NCBI GenBank assembly: GCA_026389055.1
Contig: JAPLIO010000165.1
Span: 1-32,594, forward strand
DNA length: 32,594 bases
Reading direction: 5' to 3'
Source: Candidatus Melainabacteria bacterium
GTDB taxonomy: Bacteria; Cyanobacteriota; Vampirovibrionia; Vampirovibrionales; JAJTHC01
A model generated the notes under the pieces. The model was not told the DNA's origin. It saw only the letters and a program-made list of their open reading frames with translations, and searched no databases. Of the stretch, positions 7,370 to 13,235 are shown piece after piece. The number at the start of each line of letters is the position of its first letter. Positions within the stretch are counted from its first letter, which is position 1. A program made the position numbers and the translations under genes.

Positions 7370-7502
7370 CTGTCTGTATTCATTAAACAAAAAACGTTAG
7401 GTGTTAAGCATATCTGCAGGAAACCTTGCAATTTAGACAGGCTTGTGGGTTGATAGAACTATCATTATTTATGTTCATACTGTGATGGAGTCTCTAATCT
7501 CA

Positions 7503-8642
7503 ATGAAAAATACCACTAAACCCTATATGCCCAAAAGCTACACGCCTCGTAAAAAAACAGAAGGCTTCAATGGTGGGTCTGTGCCCAATGGCTTCGGTGC
7601 AGGCAAAAAGGCTTCAAATGGCGGAAAAAATAATGCGTTGGCGACGCCTTCCGTTTCACAAAACCCCTTGCTTAACGAAGCAAAAAAAATGCTGGCTAGA
7701 AAACGCTTTGGGCAAAACTTCCTTATTAGCCAATCCGTCATTGATGGCATTGTTCGGTGTTTAGATTTAAACCCCGCTACGGATAACGTCCTTGAAATTG
7801 GCCCAGGTTTAGGGTTTTTAACACAAAGCTTACGTCCAAACGTGAAGCATTTAACTTGTGTTGAATTAGATAAACGCATGGTGGATTATTTAGCTCGGAA
7901 ATTTCAATTGCTCCCTTCGAAAACATCTGAAGGCATTGATGAGCTAGACGTTGAATTCGATGCTGATGAAACAGACACCATGGCAGCGGATGAACCTGAA
8001 GAAACCCCTGCTTATATTAAAGGCGGTAACTTGTTGGAACCCATCCATGTGGAAGGCTTTAGCCTTATTCAGCAAGATATTTTGGCGTATCCGTTAGAAG
8101 CTATTCCCTACGATAAATTTAAAGTGGTGGGTAACATTCCTTATAACATTACTAGTGGCGTACTATTTAAGTTTGCGGGTGAATTAGAAGAAACCATCGT
8201 GCCAATGCGTCAAAAAGTGCAACAGCTAACCTTTATGGTGCAACGTGAAGTGGGTGAACGGATGGTTGCCCCAGCAGGGGGTAAGGCTTACAGTCCGCTT
8301 TCTATTGCCTTACAATATTGGTTTGAAGTACAGCAGGAATTTTTAGTACCCCCTGAAGCGTTTCAACCTCGTCCTAAAGTAACTTCGGTGGTTGTTAGCC
8401 TTATTCCTCGGGCAGAACCCTTGTGCCAAGTGGATGATTTAACGTTTATGAAGAAATTAGTTCGGGCGTCTTTCCAACAACGCCGTAAAACGTTGAAAAA
8501 TTCTTTATTGCATGATACTGGCATTCAGCCTCAAGCGTTGGAACAAGCATTACAAGAAACGGGTATTTCCCCAATGGCACGCCCTGAAACGTTGACCATT
8601 CAACAGTTCGGAGCATTAAGTAATGCCCTTACCCGCCAATAA
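7503..8642 (+). CDS. rsmA: 16S rRNA (adenine1518/1519-N6)-dimethyltransferase with N-terminal extension and acidic insertion
   Basis: KRFGQNFL, VLEIGPGLG, VELD, VVGNIPYNIT, MVQREV, FQPRPKVTS, FQQRRKTL, RPETL. Start at ATG 7503 (GGAG upstream) is estimated. Confidence 0.95.
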   Translation: MKNTTKPYMPKSYTPRKKTEGFNGGSVPNGFGAGKKASNGGKNNALATPSVSQNPLLNEAKKMLARKRFGQNFLISQSVIDGIVRCLDLNPATDNVLEIGPGLGFLTQSLRPNVKHLTCVELDKRMVDYLARKFQLLPSKTSEGIDELDVEFDADETDTMAADEPEETPAYIKGGNLLEPIHVEGFSLIQQDILAYPLEAIPYDKFKVVGNIPYNITSGVLFKFAGELEETIVPMRQKVQQLTFMVQREVGERMVAPAGGKAYSPLSIALQYWFEVQQEFLVPPEAFQPRPKVTSVVVSLIPRAEPLCQVDDLTFMKKLVRASFQQRRKTLKNSLLHDTGIQPQALEQALQETGISPMARPETLTIQQFGALSNALTRQ

Positions 8643-9609: not shown

Positions 9610-9874
9610 ACGTTGTAATTAAGCGATGTTTTTCAATAATCATATTAAAGAAAACAATCGAATTGGCCGACTGTTTTATTAATGCTTAGCATCGTTTACC
9701 TTTGAGTTGGGTTTTATGCTAATAGCCAGTATTCTTTAAAGCTCTGGGGGAAGCCATTTCCCTACATAGGCAAAATTTCAACACTTTCTTTCTTCTCAAT
9801 CTCTCTCTCTTTTATTTATTTGACTTCTCTTTTTTTAAATACGAACAAAACGACATAGGGGACTTTAATTTCCA

Positions 9875-11269
9875 ATGATGATGATGATGATGACTTCTTC
9901 TTCTAAACACCCACAGTCTCAAGGGGCTTCGTTCCAGTTATTAGGCTCTGCTGCAACATCTGAAAAAACGGTTCTTTCAGGTAAAACGACTCAAAACGCT
10001 GCGAATCCAGTCGTTAAAGGTGGCAGATTGTTAGATGGCTTTACCCCTGAGGCAGCGGGTGTGGTAACGGGTAAACCTGCTCAACAGGCGTTTGATTTTA
10101 TTACTTCCAATGATGGGGCAACGGCTAGTAGCAAAACCACCAAAGCCCAATCGTTTTCAGCTGGGTTTGAACGCTTAAGCGTGAAGCAATTGCCTCGTAA
10201 AAAGCCTGAATTTACGGTAGGTGCTGGGTCTAAAGATATGTTAATTGCCACTTGGCTAACCAACTGGATTACCACGGGCTTAGCCAAAGGTACGTTGACG
10301 GAAAACCATTTATTGCCTTTAAAACAGGAAATTGCTGTTTATTTGGGCGTTAGTATTGGTACCGTTCAAAATGCTATTCGCTATGTGGAAGATGACGGCT
10401 TAGTGGAAAGCAAACAACGCATTGGTACGTTGATTCGTGGTACTTCTAACACGGAAACGGGCGAAACCACGCAAGATGAAAGCCGTGTTCGTAAACAAAC
10501 GTCTAAACGAGATACGGCGGTTGTGGCGTTACAACAACACTTTGTCAAAGCGAATTTCCAAGTAGGGCAAGCCTTGCCTGCTTCTCGGGAATTGGCGAAG
10601 GTGATTGGGTCTGCCCCGAATACAACTCGCTTGGCGTTGGAATTGTTGACGGCTCAAGGGTTGCTTTCTAGCAATAATGCCCGAGGTAAAAAAGCCAATT
10701 GGATTTTACAGGCACTCCCCGCATTGGATGAAAACCAGTTGGGTTCACAAATGGTGGTGCAGACGGATACGCTGATTGACCAATTAGAGCGGGATTTGAA
10801 GCAGTTAATTGCTGATGATTACGAAGTGAACATGAAGTTGCCTTCCCACTTGGAATTGGCGGAATCGCTCAAAGTTTCTATTAAAACCGTGCATGATGCG
10901 ATGCAACGCTTGGTTATTCAAGGCTATGTGCATTCTAAACGGGGGCGGTATGGTACGTTTGTTAGCCGTATTCCTAGCAACTTAATTAATGTTTCTGCTA
11001 TTGAACAGTTGTTTGTGCCTGCGGAAGAACATACGGCTCCTGAATCGGCATTTTACCACTATCAACAGGCGGAAGAGCAGTTGCGGGCGTTGTTGAAAAC
11101 GCAGTATAGCGTTGGGCAACAGTTGCAAGCCATGCCAGAATTGGCTGCCCAGTTGGGTGTTTCCAATAATTCGGTTCGCAGGGCGTTACAAACGTTGTCG
11201 GAAGAAGGCTTGGTTTCTTTCAAGCGAGGCAGATTCGGTGGGACTATTGTGGAAAAAATTCCGCAATAA
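9875..11269 (+). CDS. Protein with four tandem GntR-type winged-helix DNA-binding domains
   Basis: Four LP-x-x-x-ELA-x-x-(L/I)GVS-x-x-TV-x-x-A...L...G-like repeats (LPLKQEIAVYLGVSIGTVQNA; LPASRELAKVIGSAPNTTRLA; LPSHLELAESLKVSIKTVHDA; LQAMPELAAQLGVSNNSVRRA). No effector domain visible. Confidence 0.85.
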   Translation: MMMMMMTSSSKHPQSQGASFQLLGSAATSEKTVLSGKTTQNAANPVVKGGRLLDGFTPEAAGVVTGKPAQQAFDFITSNDGATASSKTTKAQSFSAGFERLSVKQLPRKKPEFTVGAGSKDMLIATWLTNWITTGLAKGTLTENHLLPLKQEIAVYLGVSIGTVQNAIRYVEDDGLVESKQRIGTLIRGTSNTETGETTQDESRVRKQTSKRDTAVVALQQHFVKANFQVGQALPASRELAKVIGSAPNTTRLALELLTAQGLLSSNNARGKKANWILQALPALDENQLGSQMVVQTDTLIDQLERDLKQLIADDYEVNMKLPSHLELAESLKVSIKTVHDAMQRLVIQGYVHSKRGRYGTFVSRIPSNLINVSAIEQLFVPAEEHTAPESAFYHYQQAEEQLRALLKTQYSVGQQLQAMPELAAQLGVSNNSVRRALQTLSEEGLVSFKRGRFGGTIVEKIPQ

Positions 11270-11294: not shown

Positions 11295-11338
11295 CACCCC
11301 CCGAAGAGTCATTTCGAGATGTCTTCGGGGGGTGTTTT
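11295..11338 (+). terminator. Intrinsic terminator-like hairpin between convergent genes
   Basis: CACCCCCCGAAGA...TCTTCGGGGGGTG perfect 13-bp stem followed by TTTT. Confidence 0.75.
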
Positions 11339-11341
11339 AGT

Positions 11342-12379
11342 TTAAACTAATGCCAGTTGAAGTGGTCGACTAGTGGTTTCTTGTTGCTCAAAATAAGCGG
11401 TTAAATCTTGCATAATTTTACTAGCCAAAACGTAAGCTAATTGAACTGGCACGGCATTGCCCACCATTTTATATCCATCCACTACTTGCTGATACTTAAA
11501 CAAAAAGTCATCGGGGAACGTTTGAATTCTCGCACATTCCCGAACGGATAATCGCCTGTAGAGATGTTCTTTCCCTCGAGCAAAAATCCGCACGTTTTGT
11601 TCAATAAACGTCATTTTAGGGGCTTGCGGATGAATGGGTGCGTGCCGACCACCTGCTTGAATGGTAAAAGAAGGCTCATCCCATGCCCTTACTCGATTTC
11701 TTGACATGTAAATCGTTGAAAATCCACCCGTCATATATTCATGATTGCCAATGAAACACGCTTCATTGGCATTATTAGGGACTTTTGCAGGTATTGCTGT
11801 TTTCTGTAAATCTGCAATGGCATCAGTTAAGGTTAATTTCTTTTTAAATGGTTTCGGAAACTCAAATTTCAGCCCTAAATCTTCCCTATAGCCGATAAAA
11901 AATACTCGTTTTCTATCTTGAGGCACACCGTAATCTACCGCATTAAGTAGTTCAAAACTGAGTGTATAACCAGCTTCTTTCAATAAGGTTTGGATGTTTT
12001 CTAGGGCTTCACTATGGCGTGAAGCCAGCATGCCAGCCACATTTTCGGCTAAAAAGAAGAGTGGTTTTTTTGCTTTTAACAGGCGGATAAATTCGTAAAA
12101 TAGTTGACCTCTCGGGTCTTCAATCCCTCTTAAAGCCCCCGCTTCGCTCCAACTTTGGCACGGAGGCCCACCAATGATACCAATACAGTCAGGAACGGCT
12201 TCCGCAGGCACATTCCGAATACTTCTTGTGTCTAATGGTGTGTGTGGGAAGTTATGACGGAAAGTAGCTTCAATGCTTTTATCGTATTCATTGGCCCAAA
12301 TAACATTAAAACCCGCTTGTTCAAAGCCTTTATCTAGCCCGCCCGCTCCTGAAAACAACCCGATGATATTTTTATTCAT
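11342..12379 (-). CDS. C5-cytosine DNA methyltransferase, M.HaeIII/M.NgoPII-like (predicted GGCC)
   Basis: FSGAGG, GGPPCQSWS, ENV, QDRKRVF, GNAVP motifs; TRD HEY..G.FSTIYMSRNRVR.W.EP resembles M.HaeIII. ATG 12379 overlaps the endonuclease stop. Confidence 0.93.
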   Translation of the reverse strand: MNKNIIGLFSGAGGLDKGFEQAGFNVIWANEYDKSIEATFRHNFPHTPLDTRSIRNVPAEAVPDCIGIIGGPPCQSWSEAGALRGIEDPRGQLFYEFIRLLKAKKPLFFLAENVAGMLASRHSEALENIQTLLKEAGYTLSFELLNAVDYGVPQDRKRVFFIGYREDLGLKFEFPKPFKKKLTLTDAIADLQKTAIPAKVPNNANEACFIGNHEYMTGGFSTIYMSRNRVRAWDEPSFTIQAGGRHAPIHPQAPKMTFIEQNVRIFARGKEHLYRRLSVRECARIQTFPDDFLFKYQQVVDGYKMVGNAVPVQLAYVLASKIMQDLTAYFEQQETTSRPLQLALV

Positions 12380-13235
12380 GGCTATAATACTCCATAAAAA
12401 CGGCTTCCAGTAATTGAGCAGGATTATTGGGGTTTTTAATTTTAACAACTCGAATAGAGAAGCCTTTATCTTGCGTTTCTAGTATTTTTAATGCTTGTTT
12501 AGAAGCCTCATCGAAGCTATCCCATTTTTCTTTCTGCATCAAACAAAAGAGTTTAAACCCTTCTTTTTTAGGATGGCTGGGGAGTGTTTCGTATACCTTG
12601 TTGGGGTGAGCAATATGCCACATACCCCGAATACGCAAATCTGTAATACCTAAGGGGTCTACCTTGTGTACTTTTCCTAATTCTTTGGTTTTAGCGTCAA
12701 AATCAATATCAGGTATGGTTTGGATGCCTACAGAAATAGCCGTTTTTATCTTTTCATAGATTTCTTTATCAGCGGTGTAGCAATTTCCGTATACGAACCA
12801 AAGTGTCTTTAAATCAGCACCTTCTACAGTGCCTACAGTGTAAATAATATCTTTCACATCCCAAGTTTCACAAGTGCGGCAAGCTTTGCTTATCATGGGG
12901 CTATCAGCATACAGTTTTGATTTTGGATAGGAACTATTGAGGGCTAAAGCACTATTTTTAGATTCTATTTTCTTAACTTCAATCGCATCACCACCGTGTA
13001 GCATCATATCAGGTGGGTTATTGGCGTTACCTAAATAGGAAAAAATGGCGGTGTAACGTTCTGTTTTGGTGTTGACATCTTCAGCTTGCAATGTACCAGC
13101 AAACGCATCTTTAATGTAGGTTTCTAAAGCCGTTCCCATGTGGTTTGCTCTATTTTTACCCAATGCTTGTTTTTGAGTTTGTCGTTGCGTGCTAGTAATA
13201 ATGTTTTGAATGGCGATTAGAAGAGTTGAAACCAT
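12372..13235 (-). CDS. Type II restriction endonuclease, NgoPII family
   Basis: NRANHMGTALETYIKDAF, YLGNANNPPD..GGDAIEVKKIES (PD-ExK), ALNSSYPK, VDPLGITDLRIRGMW; coupled to the MTase. Confidence 0.88.
   Translation of the reverse strand: MVSTLLIAIQNIITSTQRQTQKQALGKNRANHMGTALETYIKDAFAGTLQAEDVNTKTERYTAIFSYLGNANNPPDMMLHGGDAIEVKKIESKNSALALNSSYPKSKLYADSPMISKACRTCETWDVKDIIYTVGTVEGADLKTLWFVYGNCYTADKEIYEKIKTAISVGIQTIPDIDFDAKTKELGKVHKVDPLGITDLRIRGMWHIAHPNKVYETLPSHPKKEGFKLFCLMQKEKWDSFDEASKQALKILETQDKGFSIRVVKIKNPNNPAQLLEAVFMEYYSHE

Follow-up and report, generated by a model that had tools for sequence, protein, structure and literature searches.

Four GntR-type winged-helix heads in one chain without an effector domain: a candidate DNA reader conserved in Vampirovibrio-like bacteria and their relatives

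Bacterial transcription factors almost always pair identical heads on symmetric sites and sense a ligand, and draw their specificity from this. What, then, would be the role of a protein that joins four different heads of a DNA-binding type in a single chain and has no sensor? This question is raised by one gene in a 32,594-nucleotide stretch of DNA (hereafter the window; contig JAPLIO010000165.1 of the Candidatus Melainabacteria assembly GCA_026389055.1), which comes from a freshwater Vampirovibrio-like bacterium. An initial annotation, made from the sequence, had described the product of this gene, which we call the four-head protein, as about 110 low-complexity residues followed by four GntR-like winged helix-turn-helix (wHTH) units, lacking an effector domain and possibly specific to its lineage.

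We found that the Pfam model PF00392 (GntR) matches the 464-amino acid (aa) protein in four stretches, with a whole-protein E-value of 3.1e-43. When the protein was divided into five pieces and each was scanned separately against Pfam, all four C-terminal pieces, one for each head, scored above the curated PF00392 cut-off of 27 bits (Table 1), giving the four matches that the initial annotation had expected of such a scan; the N-terminal piece (aa 1-115) matched no family at E<=1. Similarly, a six-frame search of the whole genome placed PF00392 matches at 10274-10435, 10514-10687, 10775-10963 and 11060-11233, inside all four intervals predicted to hold the wHTH units, and this was the sole PF00392 gene found in the 2.21-Mb assembly (94.9% complete). 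The Pfam scan of the protein returned HTH-type models only, and no effector or oligomerisation domain (FCD, UTRA, MocR aminotransferase or YtrA helices); MarR models matched weakly inside the heads, where PF00392 was far stronger. No NCBIfam model reached its cut-off among the best 25 of 71 matches, and full-length NCBIfam regulator models fell far below theirs (for PdxR, 114.6 against 320). The residues outside the four heads form a disordered tail, a lead-in and short linkers, so that the chain is fully assigned and no other domain was detected, as had been proposed. Because four PF00392 matches are accompanied by no NCBIfam model at cut-off among the matches listed, we conclude that the protein carries four tandem GntR-type winged-helix heads and no effector domain in one chain. 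A role as an anti-phage defence component was considered and rejected: among the PADLOC defence models only the HTH portions of Csa3, CasR and CARF matched, each to single heads and at 50 bits or less, and there was no full-length match.

The predicted structure agrees with this assignment. In an AlphaFold2 model of the whole chain, built from a 46-sequence alignment, four helix-helix-helix-hairpin units were modelled with a predicted local distance difference test score (pLDDT) above 90, as expected of four wHTH folds; the tail (aa 1-95) scored below 50, and the predicted template modelling score (pTM) was 0.48. A model of the core (aa 96-464, 76-sequence alignment) reached a pLDDT of 87.6 and a pTM of 0.64. 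The N-terminal region is thus an unstructured and variable tail, as described initially, with a length of about 95 rather than 110 aa, since aa 96-119 are conserved and confidently modelled; in family alignments, conservation begins at about aa 96 with the lead-in pattern given in Table 1. In the core model, the linkers between heads 1 and 2 and between heads 3 and 4 have low confidence (pLDDT <55), and that between heads 2 and 3 is mostly intermediate (69-92); the two low-confidence linkers are compatible with heads that could re-position.

We compared the model with about 48,000 chains using VIA-align. Heads 1, 3 and 4 superposed on solved GntR DNA-binding domains with Z-scores of 11-12 and a root-mean-square deviation (rmsd) of 1.6-2.1 A over 68-78 residues, and some of these matches are DNA complexes (e.g. 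4u0y, 9jpj). Head 1 matched the DNA-binding domains of YvoA and Lin1836 (Z 11.4-11.6), head 3 matched 4r1h and 6on4 (Z 12.0), and head 4 matched GntR DNA-binding domains at Z 11.6-11.9. Head 2 gave the weakest fold match (TubR, Z 7.9; SarA, Z 8.6), with one GntR chain at Z 11.0 and an rmsd of 8.5 A. A profile search of PDB sequences retrieved 38 chains, every one of which matched a single head; the best were small YtrA-like proteins.

The four heads differ from one another. Each has its own signature: LGVSVGTVQNAIRYVED-G-VESKQRIGT in head 1; LPSARE-AK-IGSAPNTTRLALE in head 2, preceded by the basic conserved stretch RKQTSKRD; KLPSH-ELA--LKVSIKTVHDAM with the wing SKRGRYGT in head 3; and VSSNTIRKALQ-L with the wing RGRYGGTFV in head 4. 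Conserved linker patches read RKQTSKRD and IF-PA. In an alignment of 76 homologues, the helix-3 positions of head 1 carry G in 71, T in 76, Q in 76 and N in 64 sequences, and T163 and Q165 are invariant; those of head 2 carry N in 67, T in 72 and R in 67; those of head 3, K in 64, T in 73, H in 55 and D in 67; and those of head 4, N in 65, T in 66 and R in 68, the last being R435. The wing residues G357 (head 3) and G452 (head 4) are invariant. Helix-3 positions are thus nearly fixed within each head and different between heads. Profile-profile comparison of the units found heads 3 and 4 to be closest (42%), with all other pairs at 23-35%, which shows that the heads diverged long ago. The protein has a pI of 9.3; the net charge of heads 2-4 has a median of +4 across the family, their wings are basic, and two of the three linkers are acidic.

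We found the family to be lineage-specific. In a word-indexed protein search, 7,999 candidates were scored and 812 proteins were retained at E<=0.001. The best 120 of these 812 are 397-567 aa long and share 47-100% identity with the query over 78-100% of its length; where the source names them it is only as 'GntR family transcriptional regulator', and their organisms are Vampirovibrionales, Melainabacteria or Cyanobacteria metagenome-assembled genomes. We also searched 400 sampled genomes of the window's class with the protein at E<=1e-10, labelling the taxonomic families f1-f48. The protein was found in 17 of the 18 genomes searched in f1, the window's own family, and in 25 of 25 in f40, 3 of 5 in f41, 2 of 2 in f42, 188 of 189 in f2 and 1 of 2 in f48; it was found in none of those searched in f43 (104), f44 (30), f45 (9), f3 (12), f46 (3) and f47 (1). 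The carrier families, 6 of 12, bear record titles that read Vampirovibrio, Vampirovibrionales, Melainabacteria and Gastranaerophilales, and almost all carrier genomes gave one match each. Identity to the window protein drops with taxonomic distance, from 89% within the genus to 50-59% within the order and 29-46% in f2. The gene is therefore inherited in single copy, tracking taxonomy, in part of the class. A family-profile search of 13 f43 genomes gave single-head matches only, in open reading frames (ORFs) of 206-613 aa, and the same search of 13 f44 genomes gave nothing; the remainder of the phylum yielded only weak single-head matches (E 2e-8 to 1e-3).

Larger collections gave the same picture. 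Among species-representative genomes, 402 of 419 candidate stretches encode a relative. Of the matches listed, the closest is from Vampirovibrio sp. isolate DET50b (89% identity), and the titles of 80 of the 402 stretches otherwise name Vampirovibrio chlorellavorus, Vampirovibrionales, Candidatus Melainabacteria and Candidatus Gastranaerophilales, with a few that appear mis-binned (five Gammaproteobacteria and one each of Eubacteriales, Clostridia and Coleofasciculaceae); one contig of 1.7 kb bears the title Candidatus Caenarcanum. When 1.84 billion cluster representatives were searched exhaustively with a profile, 95 matches were obtained at E<=1e-30, which make up the family proper, fragments included. 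Literature searches on GntR in Melainabacteria or Vampirovibrio and on tandem, multiple or repeated GntR domains gave nothing on such proteins; the passage of PMC3218068 that they retrieved is about single GntR regulators. No characterised family with this architecture came to light, the PDB matches being single-domain, NCBIfam giving no model at cut-off among the matches listed and the literature searched offering nothing on it. We conclude that the family is a real and unusual architecture of a well-known domain, conserved in its lineage and filed simply as a GntR regulator. As to lineage specificity, the family itself bears out the suggestion, being found in 6 of the 12 sampled families of one class; the architecture in the broader sense does not, since five-head arrays occur in Streptomyces and Nocardia (see below).

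That each head keeps its own near-invariant recognition helix throughout the family argues for a single-chain, effector-independent reader of a long, asymmetric, composite DNA target with a lineage-wide regulatory role. We favour this reading tentatively and put it at somewhat less than an even chance. Under it, the product would be a stand-alone nucleic-acid-binding protein, most likely DNA-binding, in which four linked, non-equivalent GntR heads would stand in for the usual combination of a single head and a sensor or dimerisation domain. Its target would be long, composite and non-palindromic, and would itself be conserved in the lineage; its role would be that of a lineage-specific housekeeping or global regulator, not of a metabolite-responsive repressor of a neighbouring operon. 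We infer DNA binding, the simultaneous engagement of the four heads and action as a monomer. A bolder form of the proposal, which we consider improbable, is a 'polydactyl' monomer in which each head would read its own sub-site through polar, non-Arg residues, so that together the heads would cover some 40 bp or more of asymmetric sequence, fixed class-wide, and the protein would be the master regulator of a conserved regulon in non-photosynthetic relatives of cyanobacteria. If that were true, the independent re-invention of the design in actinomycetes would mean that covalent winged-helix arrays are a general but overlooked solution to DNA recognition in bacteria.

Four different, covalently joined heads without a sensor would be a different route to long asymmetric DNA recognition, to which eukaryotic zinc-finger arrays are the nearest parallel, and such modular heads might serve as parts for designed DNA binders. 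The family is near-universal in Vampirovibrio-like predators and in gut Gastranaerophilales, groups in which, to our knowledge, almost no regulators have been studied experimentally; its targets could thus reveal a core regulatory circuit.

Several findings weigh against a single-chain DNA reader. We mapped the hallmark DNA-contacting positions of GntR regulators through a HMMER alignment of head 4 to YvoA/NagR and the family alignment. As described in the relevant part of PMC4333415, NagR makes base-specific contacts through Arg38 (helix 2), Arg48 (start of helix 3) and the wing residue Gly69, with Arg35/Arg45 as the equivalents in FadR and Arg41 in AraR. None of the four heads has the guanine-reading Arg with which helix 3 begins in NagR, FadR and AraR; heads 1-4 have V/I, P, I and S/T there, respectively. 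The Arg38 equivalent is retained in head 2 alone (62/76). The wing Gly is invariant in heads 3 and 4 (76/76 each) and occurs in 48/76 sequences for head 2, and head 1 has Arg in its place. Four residues beyond Arg48, at the position of NagR Arg52, heads 1-4 have Q in 76/76 sequences, R in 67, H in 55 and R in 68, respectively, and the neighbouring positions are fixed as T, N or K. DNA readout by the heads, if any, would thus use non-canonical, head-specific side chains. Head 1, moreover, has no net charge; the pTM of the core model could fit a partly compact body instead of beads on a string; no DNA target or operator was identified, the palindrome-like element upstream of the gene being a general promoter type (see below); and the top Foldseek matches to the whole chain are tandem winged-helix arrays that bind RNA or protein, namely the SelB C-terminus, UFL1 and Pol III subunits.

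These same observations would be accommodated if the winged helices were interaction modules in an RNA- or protein-binding scaffold or adaptor rather than readers of DNA sequence. Winged helices do serve in this way in the SelB C-terminus, which binds an mRNA hairpin, in Rpc82/Rpc34 and in the tandem winged-helix subunits of SMC complexes. Besides the ranking of the Foldseek matches, in which SelB leads and TFIIIC tauB, UFL1 and Pol III subunits come next, the loss of the helix 3-start Arg from all four heads and the uncharged head 1, the very strong class-wide conservation of the surface would also fit a fixed macromolecular partner, and a KGG-like motif in the N-terminal tail, present in 23 of the 32 homologues with long tails, resembles a partner-binding motif. 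The heads, however, are GntR-type by sequence, and that family is known for DNA-binding regulators; a basic charge marks heads 2-4 as well as their wings; the loci of the window's own order have no partner gene in common beside it; and the TM-scores of the tandem-array matches are low (0.11-0.25), so the likeness is one of repeated domains and not of their arrangement. We regard a scaffold as unlikely, if worth keeping in mind; were it correct, GntR-type domains would have been re-used for another purpose. Several heads on linkers, an overall basic charge and no effector domain would equally suit a nucleoid-type architectural protein, whose low-specificity heads would bridge or wrap distant DNA segments; this was the second role suggested by the initial annotation, after a single-chain reader of a long or asymmetric DNA site. 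Such a role would also sit well with single-copy, near-universal occurrence in the lineages that have the protein and with a seemingly strong, lineage-typical promoter in many relatives, of the type that precedes the tmRNA gene in the window's genome. Against it, the recognition helices differ from head to head and are almost frozen, which points to specific readout rather than generic binding, and six sampled families of the class do without the protein. The genome has an HU-type protein of its own (PF00216, 113 bits), and a replacement for HU was accordingly rejected. We judge a nucleoid-type role to be decidedly unlikely.

The surroundings of the gene bear on the alternative of an ordinary GntR repressor that acts locally. 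A same-strand pair encoding an rRNA adenine dimethylase (PF00398) and a GHMP kinase lies 265 nt upstream of the gene, which is followed by convergent genes for a C5 cytosine methylase (PF00145), an NgoPII-type endonuclease (PF09521) and then a family-5 solute-binding protein; repression of the dimethylase/GHMP-kinase pair or of the restriction-modification pair would be in keeping with this position. Among 13 loci compared, however, these neighbours are common only to the same-genus locus, and the other 11 loci have unrelated neighbours; conserved synteny was rejected, as there is none beyond the genus. In addition, the protein has no effector domain with which to sense a metabolite, and a likely terminator (Table 1) separates its gene from the convergent restriction-modification genes. 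The hairpin of this terminator (11295-11334) has a predicted folding energy of -28.6 kcal/mol (z -5.57), and 0 of 200 shuffles folded as well. Neighbours were also clustered across 93 loci, at least one pair of which is the same place twice, using ORFs of at least 90 aa: the two largest clusters proved to be antisense frames over the four-head gene itself, and the sole true recurrent neighbour was an ORF with an HExxH motif, confined to one sub-lineage. The four-head gene is monocistronic, and within its order no neighbour is conserved. With no neighbours shared beyond the genus, no second PF00392 gene found in the genome, and a promoter-like block and terminator of its own, it does not look like a local regulator, and we hold that alternative to be highly improbable.

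Table 1. Features of the four-head gene and its flanks, in window coordinates.
Feature	Position	Strand	Details
Promoter-like block	9644..9691	+	ATTAAAGAAAACAA (9644-9657), gap, TGTTTTATTAATGCTTAGCA (9672-9691)
Shine-Dalgarno-like GGGGA	9858..9862	+	12 nt ahead of ATG; read from sequence
Four-head GntR-type protein coding sequence	9875..11269	+	464 aa; begins (ATG)6; ORF and Pfam
Disordered N-terminal tail, aa 1-95	9875..10159	+	S/A/T/G-rich; pLDDT <50; VVKGGRLL-type motif; varies between lineages
Conserved lead-in, aa 96-119	10160..10231	+	pattern LxRIxxxxLPxxxPDF...KD; pLDDT 87-93 in core model
Winged-helix head 1, aa 120-190	10232..10444	+	recognition helix GVS(I/V)GTVQNAIRY; PF00392 36.4 bits
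Winged-helix head 2, aa 211-280	10505..10714	+	recognition helix SAPNTTRLAL; PF00392 32.0 bits; pLDDT ~90
Winged-helix head 3, aa 300-366	10772..10972	+	recognition helix VSIKTVHDAM, wing KRGRYGT; PF00392 46.4 bits
Winged-helix head 4, aa 395-462	11057..11260	+	recognition helix VSNNSVRRAL, wing KRGRFGGT; PF00392 50.5 bits
G+C-rich hairpin then T-run, likely terminator	11295..11343		between convergent four-head and C5-methylase genes

Upstream of the gene, both parts of the promoter-like block and the ribosome-binding-site block TAGGGGACTTTAATTT stay conserved against the same-genus locus L017, and the surrounding upstream DNA has diverged. Many orthologues are preceded by the element TAGCAACAAAA-N10-(C/T)TGTTTTAATATAAACAAGA, the core of which is a TTGTTT-N6-AAACAA palindrome. 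In 26 loci, chosen by eye from 83 non-redundant upstream regions, TGTTTTAATATAAACA occurs upstream of the orthologue exactly in 12, with one mismatch in 6, two in 4 and three in 3; one locus has none. A private autoregulatory operator was considered and rejected. The 16-mer with at most one mismatch has 1, 1, 1, 4 and 2 copies in five genomes, always including the site before the four-head gene, and no copy in the window's genome; a looser palindrome gave 29, 42, 16, 12 and 27 matches in the five genomes against 20, 34, 7, 4 and 19 for a reversed control, a slight enrichment. Moreover, the frame recurs at unrelated places: a TA[AG]CA box about 21 nt upstream of TTGTTTT[TA]AT[GA][CT]AAACA is found at many Vampirovibrionales-type loci (L112-L130), where the recurring sites read TTGTTTTTATGCAAACA(C), each with its box at that distance. 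There it precedes small G/S/N-rich ORFs without a Pfam match, or stretches without an ORF of at least 70 aa that may be small RNAs, one of which (in L125) ends in a hairpin and T-run. The recurrent frame is also present in the window's genome (G000:C94:954-970 on the minus strand, C24 and C173), including a site 8 nt upstream of the tmRNA gene (RF00023, 128.9 bits). Family f1, to which the window belongs, retains the left part TGTTTTAWTA alone, and this core also lies upstream of orthologues in other families. Because the frame occurs at unrelated loci and just before tmRNA, the most fitting reading of the upstream element is a promoter typical of the lineage and similar to an extended -10, which suggests that the four-head gene may share its type of promoter with housekeeping RNAs.

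The HExxH neighbour found in relatives raises the possibility of a further layer of control. Of the 93 loci, 23, each with a Gastranaerophilales-type title, have on the same strand an ORF of about 235-270 aa that starts 0-40 nt past the four-head stop codon (e.g. L107:4191-4895 and L096:4177-4896); the motif EAILHExGHAKDxDxxSSxQEE is invariant in all 23 neighbours. A search for relatives of this protein in 150 sampled genomes of the class found them in 13 of 15 genomes of f40, 1 of 2 of f42, 2 of 16 of f1, 1 of 32 of f2 and 0 of 1 of f41, and in none of the families that lack the four-head protein (f43 0/30, f44 0/30, f45 0/9, f3 0/12, f46 0/2, f47 0/1), so that HExxH relatives were seen only in families also having it. 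In ImmR/ImmA, DdrO/IrrE and BlaI/BlaR1, a repressor is paired with a metalloprotease. The arrangement in the 23 related loci is alike in that an HExxH gene follows the four-head gene, and a protease-gated repressor, in which a small HExxH metallopeptidase would cleave the four-head protein, could coexist with DNA binding. Unlike the partners in those pairs, however, the HExxH protein matches no known peptidase family; it has no Pfam or NCBIfam match, so it is the motif that points to peptidase activity. In f40 the two genes lie far apart on the same contig, and most sampled f2 genomes have no such partner. The gene downstream of the four-head gene in the window is the convergent methylase gene instead, and neither a protein search nor a profile of the 23 sequences, run on open frames of at least 70 aa, found an HExxH homologue in the window's genome (94.9% complete). 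We therefore treat protease control in part of the family as a lead, supplied so far by relatives and not by the window, and for the protein as such think it very doubtful.

Other proteins share the principle of tandem GntR heads. Below the family proper, the exhaustive search listed proteins with 3-5 matched stretches, and among these Pfam gave five PF00392 stretches each for four proteins of Streptomyces (P0217, P0229, P0242 and P0245; 391-473 aa) and for a 620-aa Nocardia protein (P0235), and four for one 428-aa protein without a name. The five-head arrays, named at source only 'GntR family transcriptional regulator', are like the four-head protein in having tandem PF00392 domains and no effector domain, and unlike it in having five units, short linkers and repeats that are much more similar to one another. 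In a quick tree of 111 single units and 69 columns, which carries SH-aLRT support only and in which many forks did not resolve, heads 1, 2 and 3 each formed one group across all lineages (support 99, 88 and 93), head 4 did not resolve, all 29 Streptomyces units formed one group (support 83), and so did the four units of the 428-aa protein (support 92). Since the array units group among themselves and not with heads 1-4, these arrays arose independently of the four-head family; those of Streptomyces and Nocardia appear to be uncharacterised. A 470-aa metagenomic protein, P0210, has the lead-in motif and units that group with heads 1 and 3 in the tree; it probably represents a divergent member of the family with six units.

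Known systems share some features with the four-head protein and differ from it in others. Minimal YtrA-type GntR regulators (4r1h, 3neu, 6sbs and 3by6) share the PF00392 winged helix, and three of the four heads match their fold; unlike these, the protein has four heads per chain instead of one and no effector or dimerisation module. SarS of Staphylococcus (1p4x) also carries a covalently duplicated winged-helix DNA-binding unit in one chain, such proteins being single-chain pseudo-dimers; it aligned weakly to heads 2-3 of the model (VIA-align Z 7.2, 157 residues, rmsd 7.1 A), is of the SarA/MarR type rather than GntR, and has two units, not four. The C-terminal part of SelB (WH1-WH4; 1lva, 2uwm and 2ply) likewise has four tandem winged helices in one chain, and the four-winged-helix fragment 1lva was the best Foldseek match to the whole model (E 1.9e-6). 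However, SelB joins its array to a GTPase and uses it to bind an RNA hairpin, the two arrays are unrelated in sequence, and the TM-scores are 0.13-0.21; Pfam found no GTPase domain in the four-head protein, which argues against a SelB-type assignment.

The ends of the protein vary. Among homologues, the N-terminal tail has a median length of 27 aa (range 0-110) and is absent or short in many; the KGG-like motif, VVKGGRLL in the window, occurs in 23 of 32 homologues with a tail of at least 35 aa and in none of 43 with shorter tails. A C-terminal tail of at least 15 aa, FxWxSxNP...YR, is present in 65 of 75 aligned homologues and absent from the window protein and from family f1. The window ORF ends in TAA directly ahead of the terminator, so this absence looks like a lineage difference and not a truncation. 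At the start codon (9875-9892) the window has (ATG)6 and the same-genus locus L017 has (ATG)4; in the DNA run X6, an additional ATG is present at this repeat in about half of the summed depth. The (ATG)n at the start codon is a trinucleotide repeat of variable length.

There is a weak hint that the gene is transcribed. Lake-water and freshwater metagenomes contain the stretch (20 rows from 13 studies), and contigs of two metatranscriptome runs are 100% identical to positions 9859-10142, 10123-10273 and 10894-11114, with no contig in the same runs on the 4.5 kb of neighbouring genes compared; these runs were retrieved using this very stretch, and the contigs give no strand, start or level.

Some further observations concern the flanks and the loci of relatives. 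In the 5' leaders of several relatives (L033, L037, L041, L042, L112, L113 and L115), the interval from the promoter-like element to the start codon contains several copies of GGGACA, GGACAC or AGGGCA, and one copy overlaps the ribosome-binding site; this recalls the multi-GGA leaders bound by CsrA-type proteins. The multi-copy pattern is not present in this form in the window. A TrmB-family gene adjoins the four-head gene at L020:4644-5513 and L025:7225-8079, two distantly related loci with differing orientations; a TrmB-type regulator as a linked neighbour was rejected, as it was seen at 2 of the 13 loci only. The type II restriction-modification pair of the window (11342-13235, minus strand; PF00145 306.6 bits, PF09521 365.6 bits) was not found at the other loci compared outside the genus. 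Finally, the rRNA adenine dimethylase ORF (7443-8642, plus strand) encodes 399 aa from a TTG start, and the Pfam match, which starts at aa 85, covers 312 residues against a 263-position model; the G/N/K-rich N-terminal 84 aa may be an over-extension of the ORF or a lineage-specific tail.

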